From Polyangiales bacterium (lineage in GTDB: Bacteria > Myxococcota_A > Polyangia > Polyangiales > Polyangiaceae): a stretch of DNA of 64,000 nt. The notes under the pieces are model-generated. The model had not been told where the DNA came from, made no database searches, and was given only the letters and a program-made list of their open reading frames with translations. A program made the translations under genes and the position numbers. Where the stretch lies: contig JBBRLQ010000029.1 of assembly GCA_038231275.1 (NCBI GenBank), positions 1-64,000 of the forward strand, read 5' to 3'. Numbering within the stretch: position 1 is the first letter of the stretch; every line of letters begins with the position of its first letter. Shown one piece after another: positions 3,720-17,755 of the stretch.

Positions 3720-3775
3720 CGGCGGCACGACCAGGGCTTGTTCCTCGGCGAGCCCCGGGGTACGCGAAGGGAGCG

Positions 3776-4261: not shown

Positions 4262-4265
4262 CGGC

Positions 4266-5759
4266 GTGTCGGGGGACGAATTCGGGCTCGTCGGTACCAC
4301 GATCGCCGGAAAATACCGGATCGATCGCGTGATCGGCGAAGGCGGATACGGCGTCGTTTACGCTGGCGCGCACACGCTGATCTCGCAGCCGGTCGCGATC
4401 AAGTGCCTGAAGTCGATGGGCGGCGCCGACGACGAGGCCGCGCGCGCGGTGTTCCTCCGCGAGGCGCGCGTCTTGTTCGATCTGACGCACCCGCGGATCG
4501 TCCGCCTCTACGACGTCGGCGTCGCGACGTGCGCGGCCGGCGAAGTGCCGTACGCCGTCCTCGAGCTCCTCGATGGGACGCCGCTCGATCGCGAAATCTC
4601 CGCGCGTCGAAAGAGCGCGCGGCCCTTCACGCTGGCGGAGATCGCCGGCATCCTCGATGCGGTGCTCGAGGGCCTGGCCTTCGCGCACGCGCGCGGGATC
4701 GCGCACCGCGACATGAAGCCGTCGAACGTGATGCTGGTCGCCTCGGGCGGCGCGAAGGTGCTCGACTTCGGCACCGCGCGTGTCGGGGCGGCGTCGACGG
4801 CCGGCATGACCGGCTTCACGCCGATGTACGCGGCGCCGGAGCAGTGGGACTCCGGTCGCTATGGGCCAACGGGGGTGCGCACCGACGTGTTCGCGCTCGG
4901 CTTGCTCGTCGCCGAGATGGCGACGCTGTCGCTGCCGTTCGAGGCGCAGGGGATCCGCGATTTGATGGCGGCGTCCATGAACGACGCGCAGCGCCCGCGG
5001 CTCGCCGCCATGCGGCCCGAGCTCCCCGCGGCGATGGAGCGCTTCATGGTGCGGGCGACGCGCGCGAACCCCGCCGAGCGCTTCGCGAACGCCGACGAGA
5101 TGCGACGCGCGCTGCATGGGCTGATGCGCCAGGTCGGCGCGCCGCTGCCTCGCGCGCCGGGGCGTCGTTCGATCGCGGGGACCGTCGCGGTCACGGTCGC
5201 GAGCCTCGCAGCGCTCGGCGGAGCGTTCGCCGCCGTGCTGTTCGTCGGCAGAGCGGCGACCCACACGCGACCTCGCGTGGCCGCAGCGGCGCCCGTCGCG
5301 ACGACGACCGCGACCCCGGACACGACTCCGACTCCGACTCCGACTCCGACTCCGACTCCGACTCCGACTCCGGACCCGACCGCGACTCCGACTCCGACTC
5401 CGACTCCGACTCCGACTCTGCCCCTCAACCCTCAATTTTCAATCGAGCGGCGCCAAGGGCATTTTCAGGGTCCCGAGGCCGACGCGTTCCTCGCGGAGCA
5501 CAAGCCCGATCTCGTCGCCTGCTATCGCACGGCGCTCGAGGCCGAGCCGACCCTGGAGGGGAGGCTGACGTGGACGGTCACCGACGATCATGAGGCGACG
5601 TGCGAGGTCGATCGGCCGGGAGCTGTGCGTCACGCCTTTTGCGACTGCGTGTCCACGCGCTCGCGCGAGTACGAGCTGCCGCCGCACAAGCAGGCGTTCA
5701 TCGGTTCGGTGCCGGTGTCGACGGCGCTGCGTCTGGAGCTGCGGTTTCGTCCGCGGTGA
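4266..5759 (+). CDS. Membrane Ser/Thr protein kinase with Thr-Pro linker and C-terminal AgmX/PglI-like extracytoplasmic domain
   Basis: GEGGYG, VAIK, HRDMKPSN, DFG, YAAPE motifs; TM helix; (TP)n linker; LVACYRTALEAEPTLEGRL...CDCV. Confidence 0.9.
   Translation: MSGDEFGLVGTTIAGKYRIDRVIGEGGYGVVYAGAHTLISQPVAIKCLKSMGGADDEAARAVFLREARVLFDLTHPRIVRLYDVGVATCAAGEVPYAVLELLDGTPLDREISARRKSARPFTLAEIAGILDAVLEGLAFAHARGIAHRDMKPSNVMLVASGGAKVLDFGTARVGAASTAGMTGFTPMYAAPEQWDSGRYGPTGVRTDVFALGLLVAEMATLSLPFEAQGIRDLMAASMNDAQRPRLAAMRPELPAAMERFMVRATRANPAERFANADEMRRALHGLMRQVGAPLPRAPGRRSIAGTVAVTVASLAALGGAFAAVLFVGRAATHTRPRVAAAAPVATTTATPDTTPTPTPTPTPTPTPTPDPTATPTPTPTPTPTLPLNPQFSIERRQGHFQGPEADAFLAEHKPDLVACYRTALEAEPTLEGRLTWTVTDDHEATCEVDRPGAVRHAFCDCVSTRSREYELPPHKQAFIGSVPVSTALRLELRFRPR
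5325..5420 (+). repeat. (ACTCCG)n hexanucleotide tandem repeat, 8 + 5 copies, encoding the Thr-Pro linker
   Basis: Read directly: 8 copies at 5325-5372, interruption GACCCGACCGCG, 5 copies at 5385-5414, then ACTCTG. Confidence 0.95.
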
Positions 5760-5812
5760 GGGCGAGGGGAGCAGAGGGAGCGGTCGGAGGCGACTCGGTG
5801 TAGGCTCTGTCG

Positions 5813-7537
5813 GTGGATCCGTTTGGCGTCGTGGGGACGGCGATCGCGGGGAAGTACCGCGTCGATCGGGTCATCGGCGAGGGGGGCTTCGGCGTCGTCT
5901 ACGCGGGGTTCCATCAAGTGATCGGGCAGCCCGTGGCGATCAAGCTGATGAAGCCCGCAGGGGACATCGCCGATCGCGCGCGCAACGCGGACGCCTTCCT
6001 CCGTGAGGCGCGCGTGCTGTTCGATCTCGCGCACCCGTCGATCGTGCGCCTCTACGACGTCGGGATGACGACGACGCGGATCGGCGAAGTGCCGTACGTC
6101 GTCCTCGAGCTCATCGCCGGAGTGTCGCTCGCCGAAGAAATTCGGAGACGCGCGCGCAGAGAGGCGCCGCCGTTCTCTGCGGCGGAGATCTTCGCGATTT
6201 TCGACGGGCTGCTCGATGGTCTCGCGGCGGCGCACGCGCGGGGCGTCGCGCACCGAGATCTGAAGCCGTCCAACGTGATGCTGACGCGCGATCCGGCGGG
6301 GGCCATCACGGCGAAGGTGCTCGATTTCGGGACGGCGCGCGCGGGCGGGGGCGTCGCCTCGATGGGGCCTGCGGGGTTCACGCCGCTCTATGCTGCGCCC
6401 GAGCAGTGGGACGCGCGCTTCGGAGCGACGGGGCCAGCGACCGATGTGTTCGCGGCGGGTCTCCTGCTCGCAGAGACGGCGCTCCTCACGCCGCCGCTCG
6501 CGGGGGAGGGGATCGCGCAGATCGCGGGCGCCGCGATGGATGCGTCGCGGCGCCCGAGCATCACCGCGCGCCGCTCCGACGTGCCGCGCGAGCTCGACGC
6601 CGTGGTCCTCCGCGCGACGCGCCCCGCGCCCGCCGAGCGCTTCGCCGACGCCGCCCAGATGCGTGCGGCCCTGCGCGCGGCGTTCGGGACGAGCATCGCG
6701 GGCGCGATGGCACCGGCGCCGCTCGCGTTCACGGTCGCGCCGCCGATGTCTCCTTCAGGGCCACCCGGAACGAGCCCGTTTCCTGGGACCGAGCCGGTGT
6801 ACGGCGCCGGACCTCCGGGGGCGCCCGGTGGAGCCATGATCATGGTCGGCGGGCCTCCTCCGCGCGGTGCGCTCACGACGAACGCGCCGGTTCAGCAAAC
6901 GACGCTGCCCTCTGCGTCGCCGTCAACGGGCCCGCACCCGCTCTCGATCGTCGCGCTGGTGGTCGGCCTCGCGGCGCTCGGCGCGGTGCTCGCGTTCAGC
7001 GTGGTGCTCGTCATCTACCTGCGGAGAGAGGACGCCGCTGCAACGGCTTCCCCCACCGCCGCACCTCCCGCCGCACCTCCCGCTCCGACGAAAGAGCCGA
7101 CGCGTCCCGGCGCCTCACCCACGCCGACCTCACCCGCGCCGGCCCCCCCGCACGGCGCGACGACGGACGCCGGTGCCGTCACGCCGCCACCGCCTACGCC
7201 CCGACCCGCCGGCGACCCGCGCATCACAATCGGAACGCAGATGACGGGCGCATTCGACGCCGCCGAGCTGAAGCGCCTCGCGGAGTCTCACCGCGGCGAG
7301 CTCGTCACCTGCTACCGCGAGTCGCTCGCCCACGATCCGACCTTCCGCGCGACCGCCACGGTCACGGTCATGAGCACGCTCGGTCCGAGCGACTGCCACT
7401 TCGACGTGCGCAAGGACGACGAGGCAGACGCGATGTGCAGCTGCCTCAAGGCGACGATGTCGTCTTGGAAGATCCCGAAAGCCAACAATATTTGGGGCTC
7501 GTCGCTGTTCGAGTACGTGATCTTCTTCTCTCCGTAG
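5813..7537 (+). CDS. Membrane Ser/Thr protein kinase, tandem paralog of 4266..5759
   Basis: Near-identical N-terminus (GTAIAGKYRVDRVIGEGGFG); HRDLKPSN, DFGTAR, YAAPEQW; TM; Pro-rich linker; LVTCYRESLAHDP C-terminal domain. Confidence 0.9.
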   Translation: MDPFGVVGTAIAGKYRVDRVIGEGGFGVVYAGFHQVIGQPVAIKLMKPAGDIADRARNADAFLREARVLFDLAHPSIVRLYDVGMTTTRIGEVPYVVLELIAGVSLAEEIRRRARREAPPFSAAEIFAIFDGLLDGLAAAHARGVAHRDLKPSNVMLTRDPAGAITAKVLDFGTARAGGGVASMGPAGFTPLYAAPEQWDARFGATGPATDVFAAGLLLAETALLTPPLAGEGIAQIAGAAMDASRRPSITARRSDVPRELDAVVLRATRPAPAERFADAAQMRAALRAAFGTSIAGAMAPAPLAFTVAPPMSPSGPPGTSPFPGTEPVYGAGPPGAPGGAMIMVGGPPPRGALTTNAPVQQTTLPSASPSTGPHPLSIVALVVGLAALGAVLAFSVVLVIYLRREDAAATASPTAAPPAAPPAPTKEPTRPGASPTPTSPAPAPPHGATTDAGAVTPPPPTPRPAGDPRITIGTQMTGAFDAAELKRLAESHRGELVTCYRESLAHDPTFRATATVTVMSTLGPSDCHFDVRKDDEADAMCSCLKATMSSWKIPKANNIWGSSLFEYVIFFSP

Positions 7538-7583
7538 AGTCGTAGATCGACGCGCCACCTCGTGCGTAAAAGGAAGAACCTCC

Positions 7584-8765
7584 ATGGAGCGAATCGGCGA
7601 GTACCTCATCAAGCGCCTGGTCGGCGAAGGCGGCATGGGCAAGGTCTACGAGGCCGAGGAGCGGCTCTCGAAGCGCAAGGTCGCCCTTAAAGTTCTGCGA
7701 CCCGAGCTGTCGCGCAGCGAGGATGGCCGGCGGCTGTTCTTGAACGAGATGCAGATCCTGGCGCACCTCGAGCACCCGAACATCGTCCGGAGCCTCGCGT
7801 CGATGGAGGAGGGCGGGCAGCTCGTGCTCGTGCTCGAGTACCTGAACGGACGCACGCTGCGTGACGAGATCACCGCGCGCGGGAAGCTGCCGTGGCCGGA
7901 GGCGGTGGAGATCGGCGTCCAGATCGCGCGTGCGCTGGAGGTCGCGCACACCCAGGCGCCGCCGATCGTGCACCGTGACCTGAAGCCCGAGAACGTGATG
8001 CTGATGGGCGAGGGGACCAGCGAGCTGAAGGTCATGGATTTCGGCATCGCGAAGGTGCTCGAAGCCGTGCACGCGACGAACACGCAGAGCATCGGCACGC
8101 TGCAGTACATGAGCCCCGAGCAGATCGACGCCAAGACGATCGACGCGCGAAGCGATCTGTATTCGCTGGGGCTCATGCTCTACGAGATGATCTCGGGGCG
8201 ACCGCCCTTCCGCTCGGCGTCGCCACGCGAGCTCTTGAACATGCAGTGCACGCAGCAGCCGCCCGAGCTGGAGGACGACGTGCGGGCGACGCTGCCGCGC
8301 GGTGTGGAGGAGCTCGTGTACGCGCTGCTCGAGAAGGCGCCGGACGCGCGGCCGAAGACCGCGGTCGAGGTCGCGGCGCAGCTGCAGCCGTTCCGGCCCG
8401 CAGAGGGGCGCGTGCCGAGGACCTCGCGAATGGGGCGGCCGTCCGCGCCGTCGGACGGGCCGCGCACCGATCCGCTGCCGGGCGTAGCGCGCGTGTCGCG
8501 CGAGCCGCGTGAGGCCTCGCGCCCGTCGTCGAGCGAAGCGGAGCGCCCCGCCGCGTCCCCAAAGCTCGACACTGTGGCGCTGGTCGAAAAGGCGACCGCG
8601 CCGAAAGAGATCCCGACGTTGATCGCGGTCCTCGTGATCGTTGCGCTGTCGCTGGTGGCTGGGCTCGCCACGTACGTCGTGCGCGCGCGGACCGGCACGA
8701 CGGTGGAGCCCGCGGGGACGGGAACGACGACCGCCGCGCGTGCGACGGACGGCAAGCGACCCTAG
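7584..8765 (+). CDS. Ser/Thr protein kinase with C-terminal TM anchor
   Basis: GEGGMG, VALK, HRDLKPEN, DFG, GTLQYMSPE, SDLYSLG. TM LIAVLVIVALSLVAGLATYVV followed by a very short tail. Confidence 0.92.
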   Translation: MERIGEYLIKRLVGEGGMGKVYEAEERLSKRKVALKVLRPELSRSEDGRRLFLNEMQILAHLEHPNIVRSLASMEEGGQLVLVLEYLNGRTLRDEITARGKLPWPEAVEIGVQIARALEVAHTQAPPIVHRDLKPENVMLMGEGTSELKVMDFGIAKVLEAVHATNTQSIGTLQYMSPEQIDAKTIDARSDLYSLGLMLYEMISGRPPFRSASPRELLNMQCTQQPPELEDDVRATLPRGVEELVYALLEKAPDARPKTAVEVAAQLQPFRPAEGRVPRTSRMGRPSAPSDGPRTDPLPGVARVSREPREASRPSSSEAERPAASPKLDTVALVEKATAPKEIPTLIAVLVIVALSLVAGLATYVVRARTGTTVEPAGTGTTTAARATDGKRP

Positions 8766-8774
8766 CCGCAGACC

Positions 8775-11700
8775 ATGACCGAGCTTTCGAAGGCCCCACG
8801 ACCGGTCGCGAGCGAGGCGCTCGAGGGGATCGGGCGTGCGGCGCGCGCGCGAGGAGAAGCGGGCGAAGTGTGGGCCCTCGGAGCGGCGGACGCTGCGCTG
8901 GCGGCGCGGCTCCTCACGTTCGGGGAGGCAGGTCTCGGCGGATTTTCGCGTGGCGGGCTGGACGACGACGGCGTGTGGCTCGTGCGGAGGTCGGTCTCGC
9001 GGACCCTCGACGGGCTCGCGCGCGGGGAGCGGCTCCCGTGGTCGCAGGGCCTCGGCGTCGTGCGCGCGCTCGCGGGTGCGCTCGCGGCGGCCGAAGGGGC
9101 GGGGCTCTTCCCGGGTGCGCTGCGCCCCGCGGAGATTGCGCTCTCCGACGACGGGGCGTTCTTCCTCGCCGAGCCCCTCGTGCGCGCGCTGGTCGGCGCC
9201 GCGAAGGACGCGCGCGGTACGAGCGCGCCGTCCCCGCGGTGGACACCTCCCGAGCAGACCGGCGGCGCTCCGTGGGATGCGGCCGCCAACCGCTACGTGC
9301 TCGGCCTTGTCGCGTACCGGCTCCTCGCGGGCGGCATGCCGTTCGGTGGCGCGGGCCTTCGTCACGCGATGCGCGAGCAAGGCGAGGCGGCGGCGCCGTT
9401 CGAGGAGGCCATCGCGCGCGAGCTCAAGCCCGGCGTGCAGAGCTTCGTCCTGCGCCTCCTCGATCCCGACGTGCGGCAGCGACCTTCCTCGGCCGCCGCG
9501 CTCGCGTCGCTGTGCGCGGAGCTCCTCGGCGAACGACGTCCGCGTGAGAGCCCGTTGCCCACGCGCGCGGCGAAGTCGGCGTCGGCGGCGGCGCCAGCGG
9601 GCGCGATCGCTCCACCCGCGCCGGCGACCGCGTCGCCCGCGCGTTCGCCATCTGCGACCCGCGCGGGGACGAAGAAGCCGGCGACGCCGCGCCCGCGGTG
9701 GTACGCGGCGATCCCCGTGGGGGTAGGGATCGCGCTCGGCGGCGCGCTCTTCGCCGCCGCGGCACCTCGGACGGCGGCTCCTCGCGCCGACGCGCCGACA
9801 GCGATTCGCCCGAGCCCGCCGCTCACGTCGGCGGTGTCGCAGGAGTGCACGTCGTGCCACGCCCGTCAGGTCGCCGAGTGGCAACGGAGCGTGATGGCAC
9901 ACGCCCTCCGAAGTCCGCTTTATGGCGCGCTCGAGAGCGTCGTCGAGGAGCAAATCGGGAGAGACGAGCGATGCCCCAACGGCGCCGGCATTCTCCGGAA
10001 AGCCGGCGGCGACACGTGTCGCGATGAAAAGACCGGTCTCACCATCACCGGCACCGGCGGCGAGCTGTGGTGCGTGAACTGCCACGCGCCCGCCGAGAAC
10101 CTGAAGGCCGCGTCGATGCCGGCGTGGAGCGCGCTCGGCGATCGCCGCGCCCGCGCGCCCATCCGCGATCTCGTCAGCGGCGCGTCGCTCGAGGGAATCA
10201 GCTGCGCGGGCTGTCATACGACGATCGGCCCGGTCGGTGGCCGCGGCAGCTTCACCGGAGCCGGCGCCCGCTACGAGGGCAACCCCACGTGGACGTCGTT
10301 CCTCACCGGGCAGACGTTCCGCTCGCGACCCGAGGACGGGCAGGGGCGGCTCGGGATCGCGAACAGCGGGTACCAGCTCGACGGCCGCTCCTTCTTTGGC
10401 GCGTCGCTTGGAAATGGCGAGCCGATCGTCCACCGCCGCGCCTCGAGCGAGACGCGCGCATACCTCTCGTCGAGCGAGTTCTGCGGCGCCTGCCACGACG
10501 TCCGCCTCTTCGGTACCGACGTCCTCGGCGTCCGCGAGCGCGGCGATCACTTCAAGCGCCTCCGCAACGGCTACAGCGAGTGGCGCGAGTGGTCGGAGTC
10601 CGAGAAGCGCAGCGGCCGCGCGGCGCCGACGTGCCAGGGCTGCCACATGAGCCTCTACCCCGGCGTGTGCGTCGCGGGCGGCGCCAACGCCGCCAACGGA
10701 GCGAAGGGGACCGACGCGTGCCCGACCGGGACGCATTTCGAGCCGCGCCCGGCCGGTGAGTTCCAGCGCGCGCGCATGTCGGCGTCGTCCGACCACGAGG
10801 CGCCCTCGGCGTCGCACTACTTCACCAGCGTGGAGATCCCGCTCGCCACCGAGTTCAAGGACGCGTTCGCCGACGAGACGTCGCTCGATGCCGCCGGAGT
10901 CCCGCTGGGCCTCCGAGCACGCCGCGATCTCCTCCTCGCGCACACGTTCCGCTTCGAACTCGGCGCCGGCCGCCGGAGCGGCGCGCGCCTCGAGGTGCCG
11001 GTCGTCATCCAGAACACCGGCGCGGGGCACCGCGTGCCGGGCGGGTTCAGCCAAGAGCGCGAAGTGTGGGTCGAGCTCACCGTGAAAGACGGGCGCGGCA
11101 ACGTCGTCTACGAGGTCGGGCGCATCGCCGGACCCGACGCCGATCTGCGCGACAAGATCTTCTTGCGCACGACGACGTCCGACGATCTCACCGACGCGCG
11201 CGGGCGACCGCTGGGCCTGTTCGGCGCCGATGTCGTCGACGGCCCCGACGTCCCCGCGTGGAGCCCCAATCCGGCGCGAGGCGGCACCACGTTCCGCGGG
11301 CGCGGCCTCGTGAATCTCCAAAATGGCTTCTTGCGCTGCGTGAAGTGCATCGGCTTCGTCGACGCGGCCGGCCAGTGCCAAGCGCTCCCAGGACAGGGGC
11401 GCACGCGCGCCGATCGCTTCGACGACGGCGCGTACGATCTCGACACCGGCGAGTGCCGCTCGAACCTGACGAGCGGCAACGAGCTCTTCGAGACGTATTT
11501 TCCTGTCGGCGCGCTCGACGCCGAGCGTGGCATCGCGAAGGCGCCCGACGCGATCATCGACACGCGCTCGGCGCCGCCCGGCGTGGTCCTCACCTACACG
11601 TACGATCTCGACGTGGGCGCGCACCCGCCGCCCTTCGAAGTGGACGCGCGCCTGCGTTTTCGGAGCTTCCCGCCGTATTTGATCCGCGCGTTCGCGGCGT

Positions 11701-11816
11701 ACGAGGCGCGCAAGGCGGCGCAGGGGCTGCGGCCGAGCGGTCCCCAGGTGACGCCCGCGATGCTCCGGCGCGTGGAGGTGACGGACGTAGGCGCCGCGCA
11801 CGCGAGGATCCCGTGA
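8775..11816 (+). CDS. Pseudokinase-TM-pentaheme cytochrome c (c554-like) fusion
   Basis: Degenerate kinase C-lobe (FPGALRPAEI, WTPPEQ, ANRYVLGLVAYRLLAGGMPF); TM near 9700-9760. CxxCH at 9846, 10071, 10203, 10482 and 10632. NTGAGHRVPGG motif. Confidence 0.85.
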   Translation: MTELSKAPRPVASEALEGIGRAARARGEAGEVWALGAADAALAARLLTFGEAGLGGFSRGGLDDDGVWLVRRSVSRTLDGLARGERLPWSQGLGVVRALAGALAAAEGAGLFPGALRPAEIALSDDGAFFLAEPLVRALVGAAKDARGTSAPSPRWTPPEQTGGAPWDAAANRYVLGLVAYRLLAGGMPFGGAGLRHAMREQGEAAAPFEEAIARELKPGVQSFVLRLLDPDVRQRPSSAAALASLCAELLGERRPRESPLPTRAAKSASAAAPAGAIAPPAPATASPARSPSATRAGTKKPATPRPRWYAAIPVGVGIALGGALFAAAAPRTAAPRADAPTAIRPSPPLTSAVSQECTSCHARQVAEWQRSVMAHALRSPLYGALESVVEEQIGRDERCPNGAGILRKAGGDTCRDEKTGLTITGTGGELWCVNCHAPAENLKAASMPAWSALGDRRARAPIRDLVSGASLEGISCAGCHTTIGPVGGRGSFTGAGARYEGNPTWTSFLTGQTFRSRPEDGQGRLGIANSGYQLDGRSFFGASLGNGEPIVHRRASSETRAYLSSSEFCGACHDVRLFGTDVLGVRERGDHFKRLRNGYSEWREWSESEKRSGRAAPTCQGCHMSLYPGVCVAGGANAANGAKGTDACPTGTHFEPRPAGEFQRARMSASSDHEAPSASHYFTSVEIPLATEFKDAFADETSLDAAGVPLGLRARRDLLLAHTFRFELGAGRRSGARLEVPVVIQNTGAGHRVPGGFSQEREVWVELTVKDGRGNVVYEVGRIAGPDADLRDKIFLRTTTSDDLTDARGRPLGLFGADVVDGPDVPAWSPNPARGGTTFRGRGLVNLQNGFLRCVKCIGFVDAAGQCQALPGQGRTRADRFDDGAYDLDTGECRSNLTSGNELFETYFPVGALDAERGIAKAPDAIIDTRSAPPGVVLTYTYDLDVGAHPPPFEVDARLRFRSFPPYLIRAFAAYEARKAAQGLRPSGPQVTPAMLRRVEVTDVGAAHARIP

Positions 11817-14002
11817 GCTGGCCGGAGATCGTGTGGAGCGCGGCGGCGCTCCGCCCTCTCGACGCGCGCGCCCGCTCCGAGATCGAGGCCGCGGGCACGC
11901 TCAAGACCTTCGCGCGCGGCGAGCGCGTCTTCGCCGCCGGGCAGCCGGCCGACGCGCTCTTCGTGGTCGCGGCCGGACGGGTCGGCGTTCGCGCGGTTCG
12001 GCGGGGCGAGGTAGATGCGACGGTGCTCCGCGAGATCGCCGAGGGGGAGACGTTCGGCGAGGAGGGCTCGTTTCGTCCCGGGGGCACGCGCCACATGGAC
12101 GCGTCGGCGCTCGCCGAGAGTCGCGTCGCCGAAATCCCGCTGGGCGTCTTTCGCCGCGCGCTCGAACGAGGCGCGGGCAGCGCGGAGCTCGTCCTCCGTC
12201 ACGAGCGTGCGCTTCGGCGAACGGCCACGCGCGACGTCTTGAGGACGCTCGCCTTCGCGCGTCACGTCGACGACCGAGAGCTCGACGCGCTCCTCGATGC
12301 CACCGAGCACGTCGACCTCGCGCGCGGGCAGCTTCTGTTCCGCGAGGGCGAGAAGGCCACGCACGTGTACTTCGTCGCCGACGGAATGCTCCAGATCCAG
12401 ACCGAGGATCTCGGAAAAATTCGCGTCCGCGCGTACGTCGTTCGCGGCGACGTGCTCGGCGACGTCGAGGTCGGGACTGGTGGGGCGCGCGAGGTGAGCG
12501 CGGTCGCGTCCGGCGCGGCGTGGGTCCTCGCGATCCCGCGCACGGCGTTCCTCGGCTTCGCGCGGCGTCACCCTGGCCTGATGGACGGCATCCGCCGCGT
12601 CGCCGAGGAGCGCGAGGAGGCGCAGCACGCCGCCGCCGGCGCGATGCTAACGACGCGCCACATCTTCAAGGACCTCTACCGAATGCAGGTCGCGCGGTCG
12701 CTCCTCGTCATCGACGAAGGCGCCTGCGTGCGGTGCGGCCACTGCGCGTGGAGCTGCGCGTCGTCGCACGACGACGGCGTCTCGCGCCTCGTGCGACGGG
12801 GAGACAAGATCGTGACGCTCGCGGCGTCGGGCGACGACCCGCTCCTCGTCCCCAGCAGCTGCCAACACTGCGACAACCCGGCGTGCATGATCGACTGCCC
12901 GACCGGCGCGATCGGCCGCGATCCCCGCGGCGAGGTGTTCATCCGCGAGGACCTCTGCACGGGCTGCGGCAACTGCGCGAAGGGGTGCCCGTGGGACAAC
13001 ATTCAGATGGCGCCGCGCGCGCGCGCGAAGGGAGCGACGGTCGCCGAGCGCACGCCGGGACGCACGCGCGACGTCGCGGTCAAATGCGATCTCTGCAAAG
13101 GGCGCGACGGCGGGCCCGCGTGCGTGTCGTCGTGCCCGACCGGCGCCATCGCGCGCGTGAACCCCGAAGAGGCGATCCCCGAGGTGGGCGCAGCGCTCGG
13201 CGTGCGCACGAGAACGATCCTCCCTCGCGCGCGCGCAGCGTGGCCGGCCGTGGCCGGGGCCGTTCCAGTCGCCGCGGCGCTGACGTTGCACCGCTCGACG
13301 ACGCGCGCTTCGTACTTGGTGAGCGGCGGCGTGGCGGCGGCACTCCTCCTCGCGCTCGCGGCGTACGCGATCGTGAAGCGCGTCGTCCAGCCTCGCCTCC
13401 GCGTGTGGCTCATCGCGCACTACGCGCTCGGGGTCGTGACGATGGGCGCGATCGTCGCGCACGCAGGCGCGCGCGTCCCGCCGAACGTCGCCGGCGCGCT
13501 CCAACTGGCGTTCTGGGGCACGGCGATCTCCGGCATTTTTGGCGGGATCGTGTACCGGGCGCTCCCGTCACGCCTGTCGCGCGTGGAGCGAAAGGGCGCC
13601 CTGCCGGAGGATCTCGCGCCGCAGCAGCGCCAGCTCGACGAGCGAACGTTCGTCGAGCTCACCGGCAAGAGCGAGGTGCTGAAGACCGTGTGGTCGCGCA
13701 TTCTCCGGCCGTATGCGCGCGCGACGCTCGGCCCGGCCGCGCTGCTGATGTCGGGGCGAACGCTCGGCGGGGAGCAGCGTCACGTGCGCGCGAGGATCGA
13801 AGGGGTCCTCGGGGGGCGCGGGAACGAGAAGCTCCAAGGCCTCGACGCGCTCGTGCGGCTGGCGGTCGAGCGGCGCGCGCTGCCGCTCCAGCGCGTGCTG
13901 CAGGCGGCCCTCCGTGCGTGGATGCCGATGCACGTCGCGCTCACTGCGATCGTGCTCGTGCTGCTCGTCGCGCACGTCTGGCTGGCGACGAGGTACCGAT
14001 GA
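11813..14002 (+). CDS. Two cNMP-binding domains + 4x[4Fe-4S] (DmsB/NrfC-type) + His-bearing membrane (cytochrome b-like) domain
   Basis: GTG start overlaps upstream TGA. cNMP folds (GERVFAAGQPADALFVV..FGE..R; GQLLFREGEKATHVYFV..GD..R). Four Cys groups. Two H-x13-H pairs in hydrophobic helices. Confidence 0.85.
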   Translation: MSWPEIVWSAAALRPLDARARSEIEAAGTLKTFARGERVFAAGQPADALFVVAAGRVGVRAVRRGEVDATVLREIAEGETFGEEGSFRPGGTRHMDASALAESRVAEIPLGVFRRALERGAGSAELVLRHERALRRTATRDVLRTLAFARHVDDRELDALLDATEHVDLARGQLLFREGEKATHVYFVADGMLQIQTEDLGKIRVRAYVVRGDVLGDVEVGTGGAREVSAVASGAAWVLAIPRTAFLGFARRHPGLMDGIRRVAEEREEAQHAAAGAMLTTRHIFKDLYRMQVARSLLVIDEGACVRCGHCAWSCASSHDDGVSRLVRRGDKIVTLAASGDDPLLVPSSCQHCDNPACMIDCPTGAIGRDPRGEVFIREDLCTGCGNCAKGCPWDNIQMAPRARAKGATVAERTPGRTRDVAVKCDLCKGRDGGPACVSSCPTGAIARVNPEEAIPEVGAALGVRTRTILPRARAAWPAVAGAVPVAAALTLHRSTTRASYLVSGGVAAALLLALAAYAIVKRVVQPRLRVWLIAHYALGVVTMGAIVAHAGARVPPNVAGALQLAFWGTAISGIFGGIVYRALPSRLSRVERKGALPEDLAPQQRQLDERTFVELTGKSEVLKTVWSRILRPYARATLGPAALLMSGRTLGGEQRHVRARIEGVLGGRGNEKLQGLDALVRLAVERRALPLQRVLQAALRAWMPMHVALTAIVLVLLVAHVWLATRYR

Positions 14003-16113
14003 AGCCGGACGCGCCGGGCACGCCGAAGGAGCTCGCGACGCTCGACGCCGCCGCCGCGCGTCGAGCGCGAACAGCGCCCCGCGCAGTTGCGACCAGCGAC
14101 GTCACCCGCGTTCGCGACATGGCGATCGCGGCCGGCGCGGGCGCGATCGCGGCGATCGGGGCCCTCGTGCTCGTACCCTCGGGTGCCCCGGAAGCGTCCC
14201 CCGGACCGCTCGCGCGCCCACACGCGCAAGCCAAGCTCCCTTGCACGGCGTGCCACTCGGACAAGGAGGGCGCGCCCGCTCCGCGCGCCGCGTGCGGCGG
14301 CTGCCACGGTGGGCCCGCCCACGCCTCACTCCGCGCCGGACACCGCGCGCTCGCGGCGAAAGGCGAGCTCGGCTGCATCACGTGCCACCCCGCCCACGGC
14401 GACGCGCGCGGCGTCACCTTCGCGAGCGACGGGAGCTACGTGCTTTGGTCGAGCGGCGTCGAGTCTCGGGGCAATGCCGCGCACGCGACGCCCGGCGGCG
14501 CGACGGTACCGCTCGTCCCCGTCGCCGTCTGCGCCAAGTGCCACGACGCGCAAGACCCGCGCGATCCGCTCGCCTCGTGCACGGCCCCCGGCGCCGCAAT
14601 CTCCACGTGCTTCGACGAGCACCAGCGCGCCGACCAGACGACTCCCGCCGGCAATCGCTGCGCCGCGCAGCACGGCCCCGCGCGCTTCGTCGCGTGGGAG
14701 TCCGCGCGTGAGATCGCCCAGGCCGCTCCGGCGCCGGTGCGCGCGAGCGGCGCCGGTCCATTGGGCATCGTCGGCGCAGGTCTCGGCGCGTCCAGCCTCG
14801 CCCTCGTCGCCGCGACCGCACTTCGCCGTCGCCGTCGCCGGGCCGCGCCCGACGCGGAGGCCAAGCTGCCGGCGGGCGCGCGCCTCCGCTTGCCGCAGAT
14901 CGATCCGACGACGTGCATCGGCTGCTACGCGTGCGTGGACGCGTGCCCCTTCGACGTCATCGAGATCGAGCGCTACGTCGCCAAGGTCGTTCGCCCGTCA
15001 GACTGCTGCGGCGTCGTCCTCTGCGAGCAAGTGTGCCCGAATGGCTCTCTTGTGATCGCCGAGGGCGAGCCGATCGCGACGCGTCTCAACCTCGACGACC
15101 GGCTCGAGTCACGCGACGCGCCCGGCGTCTTCGTCGCCGGCGACCTGTCGGGCCTGCCCCTCATCAAGAACGCGATCGTCCAGGGTCGCCGCGTCGTCGA
15201 GCATGTCGCCGCATCGCTCCCCGCGAAGGAGCGCGTCAAGAGCCCGTCCGCGACCGAAGTGGACCTCGTCATCGTCGGAGCGGGACCCGCCGGGATCAGC
15301 GCGTCCCTCCGCGCGCGCGAGCTCGGCCTGTCGTACGTGACCCTCGAGCAAGGGACCGTCGCGTCGAGCGTGAAGAGCTTCCCGCGCAGCAAGCTCGTCT
15401 TCGATCAGCCGCTCGATCTCCCCGTCGAAGGCGAGCTCTGGCTCAAAGAATCGACGAAGGAGGAGCTCCTCGCGCAGTGGACGCGCATCGTCCGCGCGCG
15501 CAAGCTCGCGGTCCGCGAAGGACGACGCGTGGACGCCGTCACCCGCGAGGGAAAGACCCTGATCGTGTCGAGCATCGACGCGACAGGCGGACGCGAGACG
15601 ATCCGCGCCGCGCGCTTGGTCCTCGCGATCGGCAAGCGCGGCACCCCCAAGACCCTCGCATGTCCGATCGCAGCGGCCGCCGAGGGTAAGGTCGCCTATT
15701 CGCTCGCCGACGCGCGCAGCTTCGCCGGCCAGCGCGTCCTCGTGGTCGGCCTCGGGGACACCGCGATGGAGGCGGCGATCGCCCTCGCGCGCCAGCCGGG
15801 CACCGCGGTGACGATCGCGTACCGCGGCGCCGCGTTCCAGCGCGGCAAGGCCCGCAACGTGGCCGAGGTGAAGCGCCTCCTCGCGCGCGGCGCCGTCCGC
15901 ATCCTCTTCGAGAGCCACGTCAGCCGCATAGGCGCCGATGCGGTCACTCTCGAAGGCCCTCGCGGGCGCGAGGATCTGCGCATCGATGCGGTCTTCGTCC
16001 TCATCGGCGGCGTGCCGTCGTGGGATCTGGTCCAGCAGGCCGGAGTCAAAATGACCATCCAAGCACTGGACATCACCTCAGAAATTTCAAAATCCGCGCC
16101 TCCGACGATTTGA
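13999..16113 (+). CDS. Tetraheme cytochrome c + ferredoxin + FAD/NAD(P)H TrxB/YpdA-like oxidoreductase fusion
   Basis: ATG overlaps upstream TGA. CxxCH at 14242, 14293, 14374 and 14530 between two hydrophobic segments. CIGCYACVDACP and CCGVVLCEQVCP. GAGPAG, GLGDTA, YRGAAF. Confidence 0.85.
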   Translation: MKPDAPGTPKELATLDAAAARRARTAPRAVATSDVTRVRDMAIAAGAGAIAAIGALVLVPSGAPEASPGPLARPHAQAKLPCTACHSDKEGAPAPRAACGGCHGGPAHASLRAGHRALAAKGELGCITCHPAHGDARGVTFASDGSYVLWSSGVESRGNAAHATPGGATVPLVPVAVCAKCHDAQDPRDPLASCTAPGAAISTCFDEHQRADQTTPAGNRCAAQHGPARFVAWESAREIAQAAPAPVRASGAGPLGIVGAGLGASSLALVAATALRRRRRRAAPDAEAKLPAGARLRLPQIDPTTCIGCYACVDACPFDVIEIERYVAKVVRPSDCCGVVLCEQVCPNGSLVIAEGEPIATRLNLDDRLESRDAPGVFVAGDLSGLPLIKNAIVQGRRVVEHVAASLPAKERVKSPSATEVDLVIVGAGPAGISASLRARELGLSYVTLEQGTVASSVKSFPRSKLVFDQPLDLPVEGELWLKESTKEELLAQWTRIVRARKLAVREGRRVDAVTREGKTLIVSSIDATGGRETIRAARLVLAIGKRGTPKTLACPIAAAAEGKVAYSLADARSFAGQRVLVVGLGDTAMEAAIALARQPGTAVTIAYRGAAFQRGKARNVAEVKRLLARGAVRILFESHVSRIGADAVTLEGPRGREDLRIDAVFVLIGGVPSWDLVQQAGVKMTIQALDITSEISKSAPPTI

Positions 16114-16159
16114 GCGCTGCGCAGATCGTTTCGGGTTCTTACGCGTACGAACCTGCACG

Positions 16160-17755
16160 ATGAAGATCCGCAGCGTCGCTCTTTGGGCCGTCCTCGGCGT
16201 GGTCGCTTCCAGTGCGGGAGCCCTCGCCATCCCGGTTCCGGCGACGACCGCGCGACCCGTTCAGGTCTCTCCCGAGGGCTGGCTCGGCAAGGAAGACGGT
16301 CAGGTGACCCGCGCCCACTTCACCGCAGGTCAAACGCTCGTCGTCGACGGACGGCTCGGGCATGCGTCGATCGCGAAGACCGGGCGCGGCGAGACGTACT
16401 TCTTCGCGTCGGTGACCGGCGCCGACGCGTCGTCCACCGCCTCGGCGTCGCCGATGAACCTCGCGATCGTGATCGATCGCTCGGGCTCGATGAAGGGCGA
16501 CCGCATCGCCAACGCGATGACCGCCGCCGTCGGCATGGTCGAGCGCATGCGCGAGGGCGACAGCGTCACCGTCGTCAGCTTCGACACCGAGTCCTCGGTC
16601 GTCGTCCCGCCGACGGTCACGACCGCGTCGACCCGCCCGTCGATCGCAGCGGCCATCCGCTCCATCCGCCTCGGCGGCGACACGTGCATCTCGTGCGGCC
16701 TCGAAGAGGGCATGCGCCAGCTCGATCGAACGACGCTCGGCGGCGATCGCGTCAACCGGATGATCCTCCTGTCGGACGGAGCGACCAACCACGGCATCCG
16801 CGACCTCGGCGGTCTACGCGGAATGGCCGGGCACATGCGCGATCGCGGGCTGTCGATCTCGACGATCGGCGTCGATCTCGACTTCGACGAGAAGGTCATG
16901 GCGGCGATCGCGTCGGAGTCGAACGGCCGGCATTATTTCGTCGCGAATCCGTCGGGGCTCCCTGCGATTTTTTCGCAGGAGTTCGACTCGCTGCTCGCTT
17001 CGGTGGCCGGCGACGCGGAGCTCTCCGTGGATCTGCCGCCCGGCGTGGAGGTCGAGCAGGTCTTCGATCGCACGTTCCGTCGCGAGGGCTCGAGGATCAT
17101 CGTGCCGTTCGGGACGTTCAGCGCGAAGCAGGAGAAGACGGTGCTCATGAAGCTCCGCGTGCCCGCCGATCGCGAGGGCCTGCAGCCCATCGTGGACGTG
17201 AAGCTCGCGTACCGGGATCTGGTGCAGAAGACCGACGGGAGCTGCAGCGGCTCGCTGGCCGCGCTCGTCACCGGGGACGCGGACGCGCAGAAGGATCTGG
17301 ACCCGTTCGTCGCGGCCCGCCTCGAGCGGAGCCGCACGGCGCAGACGCTCACCGACGCGAACCTCCTCTTCGAGCAGGGCCGCATCGTCGAAGCGCGTGC
17401 GCGCCTTCGTGGACAGCGCGACGAGCTCGAGAAGAGCAAGGCCGTCGCGCACGCCGCGGCGACCGCACGTCCCACGGTGAACCCGTTCCGCGGCCGTACG
17501 CTCGACGACGACTTCGGCGCGCAGCAGCAAGCGGTCGCGCAGGCCGAAGCGAATTTCGCTACGCCGCCCGCGAAGGTCGCAGGAGGCTCGGCCGCCGGCG
17601 CGGGCTTCGGCGGCCTCGCGAGCGCGACGCCCCGCAACGGTCCGTTCGCCACGCCGCCTGCCGCGCAGCCCGCCGCGCCGCCCGCCGCCGATTCGCGCGA
17701 GGGCAAAGCGGCCCGCAAGGACAACCAGCAGCGCGCGACCGACTTCGCGTTCTGA
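16160..17755 (+). CDS. Secreted von Willebrand factor A domain protein (YfbK-like)
   Basis: Signal peptide; MIDAS DRSGSM; GGDT; LLSDG; STIGVDLDFDE. Confidence 0.85.
   Translation: MKIRSVALWAVLGVVASSAGALAIPVPATTARPVQVSPEGWLGKEDGQVTRAHFTAGQTLVVDGRLGHASIAKTGRGETYFFASVTGADASSTASASPMNLAIVIDRSGSMKGDRIANAMTAAVGMVERMREGDSVTVVSFDTESSVVVPPTVTTASTRPSIAAAIRSIRLGGDTCISCGLEEGMRQLDRTTLGGDRVNRMILLSDGATNHGIRDLGGLRGMAGHMRDRGLSISTIGVDLDFDEKVMAAIASESNGRHYFVANPSGLPAIFSQEFDSLLASVAGDAELSVDLPPGVEVEQVFDRTFRREGSRIIVPFGTFSAKQEKTVLMKLRVPADREGLQPIVDVKLAYRDLVQKTDGSCSGSLAALVTGDADAQKDLDPFVAARLERSRTAQTLTDANLLFEQGRIVEARARLRGQRDELEKSKAVAHAAATARPTVNPFRGRTLDDDFGAQQQAVAQAEANFATPPAKVAGGSAAGAGFGGLASATPRNGPFATPPAAQPAAPPAADSREGKAARKDNQQRATDFAF

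Follow-up and report, generated by a model that had tools for sequence, protein, structure and literature searches.

The open reading frame at 8775..11816 of the window (by which we mean the whole 64,000-nucleotide stretch of Polyangiales DNA that was analyzed) encodes a protein of 1013 amino acids, in which a pseudokinase is followed by a linker, a transmembrane (TM) helix and a periplasmic pentaheme c-type cytochrome. We suggest, with a probability of about one half, that this protein serves as the pentaheme subunit in a transmembrane complex for NAD(P)H-linked electron transfer, with the pseudokinase acting as a docking handle for phospho-regulation. The pentaheme protein would be the PtdA-type component at the periplasmic end of a module of four co-translated genes, and together with the gene 3 and gene 4 products it could carry electrons along a path running between NAD(P)H, FAD, [4Fe-4S] clusters, two hemes b in the membrane, four hemes c and its own five hemes c, ending at a periplasmic acceptor or donor. 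The pseudokinase would couple the co-encoded, membrane-anchored Ser/Thr kinase to the redox complex; by binding and/or phosphorylating the pseudokinase or its neighbours, the kinase might gate assembly or electron flow, and a second control would come from gene 3's cNMP domains. Inferred elements of this scheme are the direction and order in which electrons flow, the substrate, the kinase-pseudokinase contact and the phosphorylation.

Table 1. Features of the pseudokinase-cytochrome gene and its neighbours, with nucleotide positions in the window.
Feature	Position	Strand	Description or basis
Hanks-type Ser/Thr kinase, 393 aa	7584..8765	+	kinase domain aa 1-~270, TM ~aa 345-367, outside tail ~25 aa
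Whole ORF	8775..11816	+	1013 aa; 765 homologs found in sequence search
Pseudokinase domain, cytoplasmic, bilobal, aa 1-250	8775..9524	+	AF2 model, PknB Z 20.7, Foldseek
Juxtamembrane linker, Ala/Pro/Ser/Arg-rich, aa 251-308	9525..9698	+	poorly conserved; length and sequence vary in alignment A1
Single TM helix, aa 309-331	9699..9767	+	hydropathy scan; K300, K301, R306, R308 just before
Heme-binding cap, mainly helical, aa ~350-690, five CxxCH	9822..10844	+	motif counts, profile match to 5ze8/MccSep, VIA-align
CxxCH, aa 358-362, 433-437, 477-481	9846-9860, 10071-10085, 10203-10217	+	within heme cap
CxxCH, aa 570-574, 620-624	10482-10496, 10632-10646	+	within heme cap
Ig-like beta-sandwich stem, C-terminal, aa ~715-1013	10917..11813	+	AF2 secondary structure, structure matches
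Invariant stem motif N-x-G-A-G-H-R-V-P-x-G-F-S-Q-E-R-E, aa 747-763	11013-11063	+	aligns to MccSep GHxxPxG(U) loop
Cys-rich stem insertion, family-specific (C855, C858, C868, C894)	11337..11456	+	Cys counts in close vs distant homologs
Gene 3, 729 aa, cNMP / Fe-S / TM	11813..14002	+	two cNMP-binding domains, 16-Cys four-cluster ferredoxin domain, C-terminal TM domain
Gene 4, 704 aa	13999..16113	+	TM, periplasmic tetraheme c3-like (4 CxxCH), TM, 2x[4Fe-4S] ferredoxin, FAD/NAD(P)H oxidoreductase
Secreted VWA-domain protein	16160..17755	+	VWA 6.8e-20; downstream in 34/54 loci with room

The pseudokinase and its partner kinase

The N-terminal domain has a protein-kinase fold, as judged from its predicted structure, and its homology to kinases is beyond chance. 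The AF2 model (pLDDT 94.2, pTM 0.90) aligns with PknB 1mru_A over 234 of 269 residues, all 50 of the VIA-align matches listed for it are kinases or pseudokinases, and Foldseek returned PknB/PknA at E 2e-10. Sequence searches agree: phmmer against the PDB matched PknA (E 1.8e-8), the family profile matched PDB kinases (E 5.8e-13), and NCBIfam kinase models matched at E 1.2e-10 and 3.7e-8. The Pfam Pkinase model (PF00069; E 2.2e-4) aligned with the C-lobe only, aa 151-244, and its 21.1 bits lie below the gathering cutoff of 31.7, as did the scores of all 16 family representatives scanned. The C-lobe landmarks from which a sequence-only reading had first proposed a kinase-like N-terminus, namely PPEQ (158-161), NRYVLG (172-177), GGMPF and LLDPDVRQRPSSA with R236, were all located, and the fold that it proposed was recovered by both profile and structure searches.

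Catalytic positions were mapped through the HMMER alignment with a PDB kinase match and then counted in the family (n=64). The HRDLKPxN region reads F112-P-G-A115-L-R-P-A-E120; across the family the HRD Asp position is Pro in 45 members, Ala in 16 and another residue in three, with Asp in 0/64, and the catalytic Asn position is Asn in four of the 64. In the alignment E133 (E-P-L) stands where kinases have the DFG Asp, a position that is Asp in 29 members, Glu in 14 and non-acidic in 21; the Phe and Gly of the motif are lost. Beta3 reads E31-V-W33-A34, and the only Lys ahead of aa 144 is K6; in the family, Lys was absent from either beta3 position in 54 of 54 aligned rows, and the first of these positions is Trp, Phe or Tyr in 50 of them. 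The Gly loop is reduced to G18-I-G20-R21-A-A (family consensus x-x-G-R-A-x-R-F), which departs from GxGxxG. The earlier suspicion that the domain is catalytically dead is thus borne out in the residues themselves. On their evidence the domain inside the cell is a genuine pseudokinase, which has lost the ATP-binding and catalytic residues and whose fold is maintained by purifying selection.

Of 66 related Polyangia loci with room for the domain, 62 encode the pseudokinase, among them complete chromosomes of the cultured strains Labilithrix luteola and Sorangium spp. The fusion is therefore neither strain-specific nor an assembly chimera, two possibilities that the sequence-only reading had named against itself, and it is conserved across the whole family. 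Values of dN/dS are 0.17 and 0.26 for the pseudokinase, similar for the cytochrome domain (0.14 and 0.26) and higher for the linker region (aa 251-345; 0.39 and 0.51). Twenty columns of the pseudokinase are invariant across 62 sequences, and they cluster in the P+1, alphaF and alphaG region, which may be a retained protein-binding surface. One clade, in a single nested loss, is without the pseudokinase and retains both the redox genes and the kinase, the latter directly upstream. The redox core can apparently do without the pseudokinase, therefore, which fits an accessory regulatory role.

The kinase encoded upstream (7584..8765) matches Pkinase at E 1.2e-56, and 15 orthologs show no variation in its GEGGMG, VALK, HRDLKPEN, DFG and SPE motifs. 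Of 61 loci with room, 59 have an ortholog of this kinase upstream of the cytochrome gene; in two loci (L096 and L105) the pseudokinase is present and no kinase ortholog was found upstream at or above 200 bits. From its motifs we take this to be a bona fide active kinase, TM-anchored and sensor-less, and a conserved partner gene, much as had been supposed of an adjacent active kinase with scant external part.

The pentaheme cytochrome domain

A hydropathy scan found one hydrophobic segment in the ORF. There is no N-terminal signal peptide, and the internal TM anchor follows a cytoplasmic part of 308 amino acids. Attachment of c-type heme requires that the heme-carrying part be periplasmic, so the C-terminal, cytochrome side of the TM helix should lie in the periplasm, and the product is best explained as a bitopic inner-membrane protein with its pseudokinase in the cytoplasm.

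Beyond the TM helix, the five CxxCH motifs and additional Cys noticed at the outset are all in place: eight further periplasmic Cys occur at 400, 415, 632, 649, 855, 858, 868 and 894, and the ORF contains no CxxCK or CxnCH variants. The five motifs are kept in homologs both close (n=30) and distant (n=26), whereas the stem-insertion Cys occur in 30/30 close homologs and in 0-12% of the 26 distant ones. Profile searches with the heme domain matched 5ze8 (E 4.6e-17) and MccSep (E 3.7e-9). For the predicted model, 5ze8 was the sole Foldseek match at E<=1e-3 (E 1.8e-11), and VIA-align against 5ze8_A gave Z 19.1 (rmsd 3.8, 353/385 aligned), the next row being at Z 9.6. The AF2 model is beta-rich from model residue ~390, and Ig-like sandwiches match it at Z 8-9.6 over model residues 389-679. 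The domain thus has the makeup of the c552-type (PHC) family, with five CxxCH in a helical cap and then an Ig-like beta-sandwich with a GHxxPxG loop.

The heme domain's distant homologs stand alone, either as lipoproteins or as secreted proteins, and almost all of them have five CxxCH. The free-standing secreted pentaheme homologs, a widespread family, contain no signalling domains, which suggests that the heme family is ancestrally non-signalling and speaks for an electron-transfer role. In the profile alignment M374 falls at the position of a His ligand in solved relatives, and one His/Met heme of higher potential is therefore implied.

The gene cassette and competing explanations

The kinase gene is separated from the pseudokinase-cytochrome gene by 9 nt, a 4-nt GTGA overlap ties the latter to gene 3, and an ATGA overlap ties gene 3 to gene 4. 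All four genes were found together in 15 of 15 fetched loci. In the 80-locus set, counting loci with room, gene 3 was present in 61 of 62, the c3 part of gene 4 in 54 of 55 and its ferredoxin-FAD part in 51 of 55; among 301 genomes, those with a full-length gene 4 ortholog are precisely the 10 sampled genomes (plus G000) that have a cytochrome ortholog. The cassette is translationally coupled and conserved family-wide, and the pseudokinase-cytochrome gene is strictly co-inherited with genes 3 and 4. The VWA-protein gene is a frequent but not constant neighbour, and its membership in the system is uncertain.

Together, genes 3 and 4 appear to encode a complete chain of FAD, Fe-S, TM-His and tetraheme-c elements, with cofactor occupancy predicted from the motifs. 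Gene 3 matches Pfam cNMP_binding (2.1e-30) and Fer4_11 (1.5e-10), and its ferredoxin part is NrfC/HydN-like, with 4x[4Fe-4S]. Its TM domain has two pairs of His at i/i+14 spacing (H536/H550 and H707/H721), kept in every ortholog whose alignment extends over those positions, and is a candidate di-heme-b site; an Atlas lead to "ferric reductase like TM component" is weak (score 0.81), and Pfam and PDB searches gave no match for the gene 3 C-terminus. Gene 4 matches Pyr_redox_3 (5.8e-31), Fer4 and Cytochrom_c3_2, and its oxidoreductase is TrxR/YpdA-like (YpdA-like match 2.7e-37) without CxxC.

A link to phospho-signalling is suggested by a distant Myxococcota cluster, L108. In this single locus an active Ser/Thr kinase adjoins a PtdA-like cytochrome that has no pseudokinase, and two FHA domains (PF00498, E 1.8e-17) stand at the N-terminus of the gene 4 homolog. 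FHA domains bind phospho-Thr. We count this variant, along with the MviN/PknB/FhaA precedent discussed below, in favor of a phospho-regulated electron-transfer complex. Several points count against it, however: the FHA variant is one locus, the hemes b are predicted from four His and the weak 0.81 lead, the ptd porin and decaheme genes are missing from the locus, and the match to ptd is by domain content only. The two loci with a pseudokinase and no upstream kinase ortholog also weigh against it, as does the receptor-like layout of an outside domain, a TM helix and a kinase-like domain beside a sensor-less kinase.

That layout is what led the sequence-only reading to propose a receptor-type redox or ligand sensor, in which the TM helix would relay the state of hemes in the periplasm (heme 2, for instance) to the pseudokinase, and the latter would act as an allosteric switch on the partner kinase and so on downstream targets, with genes 3 and 4 poising or resetting the sensor hemes or being regulated targets. 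We consider this possible but less probable than electron transfer. In its favor, besides the topology and the fact that the conserved partner kinase has so little outside the membrane, are the purifying selection on the pseudokinase and its invariant P+1, alphaF and alphaG surface. A ligand-accessible heme is also conceivable, with G599/Y600 at the position of the MccSep heme-2 distal Cys and no His, Met or Cys near, and the implied His/Met heme at M374 would fit as well. However, most of the heme family consists of free-standing, non-signalling proteins, and nine c-heme motifs (5+4 CxxCH), a putative b-heme pair, 24 Fe-S-type Cys and FAD would be a heavy investment in sensing. The kinase persists directly upstream in the clade that lacks the pseudokinase, so its tie to the module appears independent of any pseudokinase relay. 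Moreover, an equal redox gene set exists in other phyla, and its description mentions no kinase (bioRxiv 10.1101/2023.11.21.568154); the bacterial TM pseudokinases covered in one review (MviN and EssB/YukC) are presented there as scaffolds or receivers (PMC12599244). The original interpretation thus survives in part. A dead kinase fold joined through a TM helix to a pentaheme cytochrome, and conserved with its partner kinase, stands; the non-signalling heme family, the coupling to redox genes, the ptd match and the pseudokinase-less clade point away from a pure sensor.

A purely structural role seems unlikely. Here the pseudokinase would ignore the kinase and bind the cytoplasmic cNMP, Fe-S and FAD parts of genes 3 and 4, thereby keeping the pentaheme subunit aligned with the membrane complex, or it would drive oligomerization. 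Translational coupling and strict co-inheritance with genes 3 and 4 fit such a scaffold, as do the two loci without an upstream kinase ortholog and one sequence (P0147) in which a read-through or fusion joins the cytochrome to the cNMP protein; MccSep is a homotetramer (bioRxiv 10.1101/2025.11.18.688581) and MviN pseudokinase domains are described as dimerizing (PMC12599244). But the kinase is as conserved beside the gene as the redox genes are, it persists where the pseudokinase was lost, and the FHA domains of L108 suggest phospho-dependent interactions. Finally, although lost catalytic residues and a Pfam score under the gathering threshold might recall a decaying, functionless remnant of an active receptor kinase, or an assembly or annotation chimera, this is highly improbable and was rejected, being contradicted by the low dN/dS, the 20 invariant columns, the presence of the domain in nearly all loci including complete chromosomes, the single nested loss and the confident predicted fold.

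Comparison with known systems

The general plan of a cytoplasmic Fe-S or flavin module linked to periplasmic c-hemes by way of membrane b-hemes is familiar from the Tmc, Hmc and DsrMKJOP complexes of sulfate reducers and from NOX and ferric reductases. These belong to other protein families and fusions than the present cassette, although the His pairs of gene 3 resemble those of ferric-reductase domains. We know of none that has a pseudokinase or a dedicated Hanks kinase.

The closest structural relative of the heme domain is c552 of Thermochromatium tepidum (PDB 5ZE8), with which it shares the five-CxxCH helical cap plus, at the C-terminus, the Ig-like beta-sandwich with GHxxPxG. The c552 protein is described as soluble, of ~435 amino acids and of unassigned function (PMC11976967). 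The present protein, in contrast, is TM-anchored, is ~300 amino acids larger through insertions that include the 4-Cys insert, has M374 where c552 has a His ligand candidate, and has gained a cytoplasmic pseudokinase. The same pentaheme cap and Ig-like stem are found in MccSep/ExtKL of Geobacter sulfurreducens (PDB 9WT8, 9WT9), and the NCBIfam ExtKL model matches aa 736-784 at E 1.2e-4. MccSep is described as a periplasmic polysulfide reductase whose active site is formed from heme 2 and the stem loop, and as a soluble protein with a signal peptide and no kinase-like domain (bioRxiv 10.1101/2025.11.18.688581). Its Sec/Cys U325 aligns to F758, a near-invariant Phe in the pseudokinase-cytochrome family, and its heme-2 distal Cys C239 aligns to G599/Y600 (R-L-R-N-G-Y-S-E-W), in an alignment that may be a few residues off; the stretch from C573 to C620 contains no other Cys. 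With these counterparts, the Sec/Cys-heme chemistry is probably absent here.

By domain content only, the cassette matches the ptdABCDEFG cluster of other phyla, reported from Alpha- and Gammaproteobacteria, Nitrospirales and Planctomycetes and described as of unknown function, with no mention of a kinase. Its described parts are a pentaheme protein that has a beta-sandwich (PtdA), the porin PtdB, an FAD/NAD(P) oxidoreductase (PtdC), a periplasmic tetraheme protein (PtdD), a cNMP-binding 4Fe-4S protein (PtdE), a ferric-reductase-like TM protein (PtdF) and a decaheme protein (PtdG) (bioRxiv 10.1101/2023.11.21.568154). Compared with this published description, equivalents of PtdA, PtdC, PtdD and PtdE are encoded together here, and the TM helices and four conserved His of the gene 3 C-terminus, with the weak Atlas lead, make it a possible counterpart of PtdF. 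Neither PtdB nor PtdG was found between 4266 and 19153; a porin candidate from L108 used as query had no match in genome G000 (94% complete), and multiheme matches on other contigs of that genome were weak only. Unlike the cluster as described, the cassette has PtdD and PtdC fused into one gene and PtdE and PtdF into another, its PtdA counterpart has gained a TM helix and a pseudokinase, and it includes an active Ser/Thr kinase.

Among bacterial pseudokinases, the GLW group, as characterized in the review PMC12599244, resembles the present domain in having Trp at beta3 and a TM helix C-terminal to the domain, but F-P-G rather than GLW stands here at the HRD position. The same source describes MviN (MurJ-like) of Mycobacterium tuberculosis, in which PknB phosphorylates the pseudokinase, and this thereafter recruits FhaA (PMC12599244). 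MviN differs in that its pseudokinase is of the ActPs3 (actinobacterial) type, and in being a cell-wall precursor flippase with a carbohydrate-binding outside domain. Nevertheless, it too sits in the membrane and has inside the cell a Hanks-type pseudokinase that has lost ATP binding, and its FHA partner would have a counterpart in the L108 variant.

Topology and gene setting of the fusion

A script scan of the gene 2 product found CxxCH motifs at residues 358, 433, 477, 570 and 620, zero CxxCK motifs, zero longer-spaced heme motif variants and eight additional cysteines C-terminal to the membrane segment, in agreement with the five motifs and many extra cysteines that the sequence-only reading had placed there. 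Residues 309-331 form the sole hydrophobic stretch, and the N-terminus has no signal peptide. The attachment of c-type heme is a periplasmic process, and the N-terminal 308 residues must therefore be cytoplasmic. The stem insertion is found in 30 of 30 close homologs and almost never in distant ones, and its four cysteines may form disulfides or bind a metal.

Nine nucleotides separate the stop of the upstream partner kinase from gene 2, whose own stop overlaps the start of gene 3 (GTGA); the stop of gene 3 overlaps the start of gene 4 (ATGA). The TM domain of gene 3 holds two His pairs spaced i/i+14, kept in all orthologs where the alignment covers them. This region had no match in the PDB, and in the Atlas it pointed weakly to ferric-reductase-like TM proteins (scores 0.81-0.82). 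A promoter and terminator scan of 3500..19500 was uninformative (0 promoter-like elements; 6 terminator-like against 5.7 expected). The G+C content of the window is about 70%.

Features of the window and of L108, a divergent ptd-like cluster in a distant Myxococcota genome (G325:C183); conservation counts refer to loci with room in the 80-locus set unless stated
Feature	Position (strand)	Content	Conservation
Tandem kinases, just upstream of partner kinase	4266..5759 (+); 5813..7537 (+)	Active Hanks kinases (Pkinase E 2e-40, 4e-36); each with TM, Pro/Thr-rich linker and similar Cys-containing C-terminal domain; one with long Thr-Pro repeat	Both kept in same-genus genome L013; one similar gene upstream in locus L019
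Partner kinase	7584..8765 (+)		59/61
Gene 2, pseudokinase-cytochrome	8775..11816 (+)	1013 aa	
Stem insertion of gene 2	11337..11456	C-x2-C-x9-C-x25-C, residues 855-894	
Gene 3	11813..14002 (+)	Two cNMP-binding domains; 16-Cys four-cluster NrfC/HydN-like ferredoxin; C-terminal TM domain	61/62
Gene 4	13999..16113 (+)	TM, tetraheme c3-like, TM, 2x[4Fe-4S] ferredoxin, TrxR/YpdA-like FAD/NAD(P)H without CxxC	c3 part 54/55; Fd-FAD part 51/55
Downstream VWA gene	16160..17755 (+)	Secreted or membrane	After cassette in 34/54
Response-regulator/histidine-kinase hybrid	27509..28729 (+)	Ordinary in myxobacterial genomes	
NADPH-generating sugar metabolism cluster, about 18 kb downstream	34284..43031	Glucokinase, transketolase, OpcA, glucose-6-phosphate dehydrogenase, 6-phosphogluconate dehydrogenase	
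Large Ser/Thr kinase	54243..57791 (+)	With AAA_16 and TPR; ordinary in myxobacterial genomes	
Second VWA-domain protein	60409..61932 (-)	Secreted or membrane	
L108 putative porin		539 aa, no Pfam match, last residue Phe	
L108 multiheme protein		About 12 hemes	
L108 SH3-tetraheme protein and gene 3 homolog			
L108 PtdA-like pentaheme		Lipoprotein without pseudokinase	30% identical
L108 kinase	17897..19900 (+)	Active Ser/Thr kinase with FGE-sulfatase-like ectodomain; adjoins PtdA-like pentaheme	
L108 gene 4 homolog	4138..7098 (-)	Two N-terminal FHA domains (PF00498 E 1.8e-17)	

A dead kinase domain and a pentaheme domain

Pfam Pkinase matched the C-lobe of gene 2 alone and below threshold (E 2.2e-4; 21.1 vs 31.7 bits), and none of 16 cluster representatives scanned with Pfam reached the Pkinase threshold. 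NCBIfam kinase models matched at E 1.2e-10 and 3.7e-8, phmmer found PknA in the PDB over residues 68-262 (E 1.8e-8), and a 62-sequence family profile found bacterial kinases (E 5.8e-13) and the Tribbles-1 pseudokinase (1.4e-7). AlphaFold2 on the 62-sequence alignment gave a model (pLDDT 94.2, pTM 0.90) in which the order of strands and helices is canonical. Foldseek returned at least 500 matches to it at E<=0.001, all of those listed being protein kinases, with PknB/PknA at the top (E 2e-10); VIA-align paired it with PknB (1mru_A) at Z 20.7 and rmsd 6.3 over 234/269 aligned residues, and its best 50 rows were all kinases or pseudokinases. Profile and structure searches thus bear out the kinase fold that had been proposed for the N-terminus.

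Catalytic positions were placed by HMMER alignment to a PDB kinase and counted over 64 related loci. The HRDLKPxN position reads F112-P-G-A115-L-R-P-A-E120, E133 (in E-P-L) sits opposite the DFG Asp, beta3 is E31-V-W33-A34 with no Lys, and the Gly loop is G18-I-G20-R-A-A; APE has become P-P-E-Q and the alphaF Asp N172, and R236 is retained. Asp occupies the HRD-Asp position in 0/64 loci (P 45, A 16, other 3), neither beta3 position held Lys in any of the 54 aligned rows (W/F/Y at the first in 50/54), and the catalytic Asn is retained in 4/64. On these counts the whole family is predicted to be pseudokinases, with a kinase fold unable to catalyse. The earlier claim that HRD, Gly loop and VAIK Lys had been lost, leaving a catalytically dead domain, therefore stands; at the DFG-Asp position, which that claim also counted among the losses, D or E occurs in 43/64 loci. 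Membership of the GLW pseudokinases was rejected, the HRD position being FPG rather than GLW.

NG86 dN/dS against two same-genus orthologs was 0.17 and 0.26 for the pseudokinase, 0.14 and 0.26 for the cytochrome, and 0.39 and 0.51 for the linker; by this measure the pseudokinase domain is not decaying. Over 62 sequences there are 20 invariant columns, clustered in the P+1, alphaF and alphaG region, which may be a retained protein-binding surface.

The heme domain alone gave a single phmmer match in the PDB, cytochrome c554 at E 0.044, so a family profile (30 close and 26 distant homologs) was required for finding its solved relatives. These were the pentaheme c552 of T. tepidum (5ze8; E 4.6e-17), matched in three stretches, namely the heme cap, the GHxxPxG region and the C-terminus, and the G. 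sulfurreducens selenoprotein MccSep (9wt8, 9wt9; E 3.7e-9). An AlphaFold2 model of the periplasmic domain (pLDDT 91.5, pTM 0.92) had one Foldseek match at E<=0.001, again 5ze8 (E 1.8e-11; TM 0.63 on target). VIA-align to 5ze8_A covered model residues 16-678 (Z 19.1, rmsd 3.8 Å, 353/385 aligned, 21% identity), and the rows that followed were generic Ig-like sandwiches at Z <=9.6.

Excerpts of the MccSep preprint (bioRxiv 10.1101/2025.11.18.688581) describe a polysulfide reductase built of an Ig-like stem and a helical cap in which five c-hemes sit; bis-His ligation is given for hemes 1, 3, 4 and 5, and the active site is heme 2, with His/Cys239, into which the stem Sec325 reaches. By HMM alignment, U325 corresponds to F758 of gene 2, in the invariant G-H-R-V-P-G-G-F-S-Q-E-R-E, and C239 to G599/Y600, in R-L-R-N-G-Y-S-E-W; both catalytic residues therefore appear to be absent. 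M374 aligns with a His of both c552 and MccSep, implying one probable His/Met heme; all close homologs (100%) and 69% of the distant ones keep this Met. Outside the heme motifs, H553, H681, H752 and M625 are conserved throughout both groups. We infer that heme 2 may have no obvious distal ligand. One homolog carried a precomputed PF02335 match, and an NrfA-type nitrite reductase was considered and rejected (no CxxCK; weak PDB profile E, 0.007-0.01).

A search of 50%-identity representatives with the heme domain gave 687 matches at E<=1e-3, 71 of them at E<=1e-30. The wider family consists mostly of free-standing five-CxxCH proteins, both of those inspected having lipoprotein-type signal peptides; RCC1, PKD or ricin domains occur on some members, and signalling domains on 0/20 scanned. 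Neighbours in the Atlas were unnamed multiheme proteins of Acidobacteriota, Pseudomonadota and Planctomycetota.

Spread and age of the fusion

A word-indexed search returned 765 homologs of gene 2, named 'hypothetical' or 'PknA'; the 120 best have identities of 54-100%, and almost all of these align over 97-100% of the query. Of 41 related genomes, 25 belong to the same family, and 11 of these gave strong matches; the 16 from other families of the order gave none. The best 80 of 478 relatives, all Polyangia, served as the related-locus set; among them are Labilithrix luteola DSM 27648, Chondromyces apiculatus DSM 436, Polyangium fumosum DSM 14668 and two Sorangium chromosomes (So ce375, So ce726). 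The pseudokinase domain is encoded in 62/66 loci having enough upstream DNA, and a 301-genome sample of the phylum held orthologs (E<1e-230) in 11 genomes (8/23 of family f1 plus the source genome, and 2/3 of f21), with open frames of about 940-1460 aa apart from one of 725 aa interrupted at a contig start. The sequence-only reading had allowed for a strain-specific fusion or an assembly chimera; this breadth contradicts both, and the fusion is old and conserved.

The four exceptions (L049, L058, L069 and L075, all Polyangiaceae MAGs) encode a cytochrome that starts with a short tail and TM alone, directly downstream of a partner kinase ortholog (70-72% identical). FastTree, run on 82 cytochrome domains with distant homologs as the root and with rows whose cytochrome HSPs fell below about 600 query residues excluded, places them in one clade (support 100) inside a 30-row clade (support 97), the other determinable rows all having the pseudokinase. 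Since the clade is nested among pseudokinase-bearing rows, its sequences fit a single secondary loss. A pseudokinase-less database homolog, P0134, was sister to the whole family on a long branch, a placement that we regard as tentative.

Synteny of the kinase and genes 2, 3 and 4 holds in 15/15 fetched loci, two of which are cut by contig ends. The set of sampled genomes with a full-length gene 4 ortholog (E<1e-150) is identical to the set with a cytochrome ortholog, namely ten genomes plus the source genome; a further 90 genomes gave gene 4 matches of E 1e-41 to 1e-87 at best, nearly all rows listed covering the Fd-FAD half only. In a further homolog, P0147 (1028 aa), the cytochrome's C-terminal part is continuous with cNMP-binding domains, either through a fusion of genes 2 and 3 or through a read-through at their 4-nt overlap.

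Possible roles and a putative ptd-type module

Excerpts of a preprint on marine Alphaproteobacteria (bioRxiv 10.1101/2023.11.21.568154) describe a 'ptdABCDEFG operon', its function unassigned there, that encodes a c552-homologous pentaheme with beta-sandwich, a porin, an FAD/NAD(P) oxidoreductase, a periplasmic tetraheme, a cNMP-binding 4Fe-4S protein, a ferric-reductase-like TM protein and a decaheme. Its hosts there are Alpha- and Gammaproteobacteria, Nitrospirales and Planctomycetes; the cluster type is reported as widespread, and ptdAB as highly transcribed in oxygen-deficient waters. Our literature search for ptd-type parts found no other report. Likened by domain content to these excerpts, the Polyangia cassette would be a ptd-type module, because its parts correspond to the published ones apart from the porin and the decaheme, the TM domain of gene 3 being a candidate PtdF.

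We suggest that the cassette encodes a regulated redox complex, with the pseudokinase as a docking or receiver handle, and we give this reading a probability of about 0.5. It is favored because the heme family has a non-signalling ancestry, the electron-supply genes are dedicated to the cassette, ptd clusters elsewhere are kinase-free, one clade dropped the pseudokinase yet kept the kinase and redox genes, and the bacterial TM pseudokinases in excerpts of a review (PMC12599244) are scaffolds or receivers. Set beside these points, a sensor that relays heme redox or ligand state to the partner kinase, as first proposed from the sequence, is a tentative alternative; in its favor are the receptor-like topology, a partner kinase with no sensor of its own and a heme 2 that may be open. 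More doubtful is an extended version, a multiheme 'receptor pseudokinase', in which a dedicated NAD(P)H-linked chain, NOX-like in logic, would feed or drain the five periplasmic hemes, whose redox or ligand state would pass through one TM helix to the dead kinase and so switch the partner Hanks kinase on or off. Ser/Thr phosphorylation and cyclic nucleotides would then both gate transmembrane electron flux and learn of it, and, if true, this would be a previously undescribed wiring of extracytoplasmic electron transfer to eukaryote-like signalling in social, predatory myxobacteria. A kinase-independent scaffold is improbable; two loci with no kinase upstream and the cytochrome-cNMP joining in P0147 point that way. 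Conservation and dN/dS contradict the readings as a relic or a chimera.

Neither the folds nor the module type is new. We found no description, in the literature searched, of a Hanks pseudokinase joined through a TM to a pentaheme PtdA-type cytochrome with a dedicated kinase, and full-text searches gave no bacterial work joining a pseudokinase with a multiheme or c-type cytochrome, the co-mentions being eukaryotic and unrelated. Among the matches listed for multiheme periplasmic sensors, 'Ser Thr kinase' did not occur. The text of PMC12599244 contains zero instances of 'cytochrome', 'heme' or 'Myxococc', and the pseudokinase families in its excerpts are linked to domains other than cytochromes. 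Bacterial pseudokinases have barely been studied; cultured strains carry the gene 2 family, which makes the module's function, and what a receptor-like pseudokinase does in bacteria, directly testable, with the natural pseudokinase-less clade as a built-in comparison.

Compared with ptd, the Polyangia cassette would have PtdD and PtdC fused into one gene and PtdE and a candidate PtdF into another, and its locus holds neither porin nor decaheme. Two elements are extra, a Hanks kinase dedicated to the cassette and the pseudokinase joined to PtdA. The porin candidate of L108 had no match in our source genome, and its 12-heme protein had weak matches elsewhere in that genome. FHA domains read phospho-Thr, and L108, a single locus, hints at a link from a ptd-like module to Ser/Thr signalling through a second, unrelated domain solution. 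In excerpts of PMC12599244, PknB phosphorylates the MviN pseudokinase, to which FhaA then binds. The ptd-type cluster would thus be tied to Ser/Thr phospho-signalling twice independently, by a pseudokinase on PtdA in Polyangia and by FHA domains on the PtdD/C homolog of L108.
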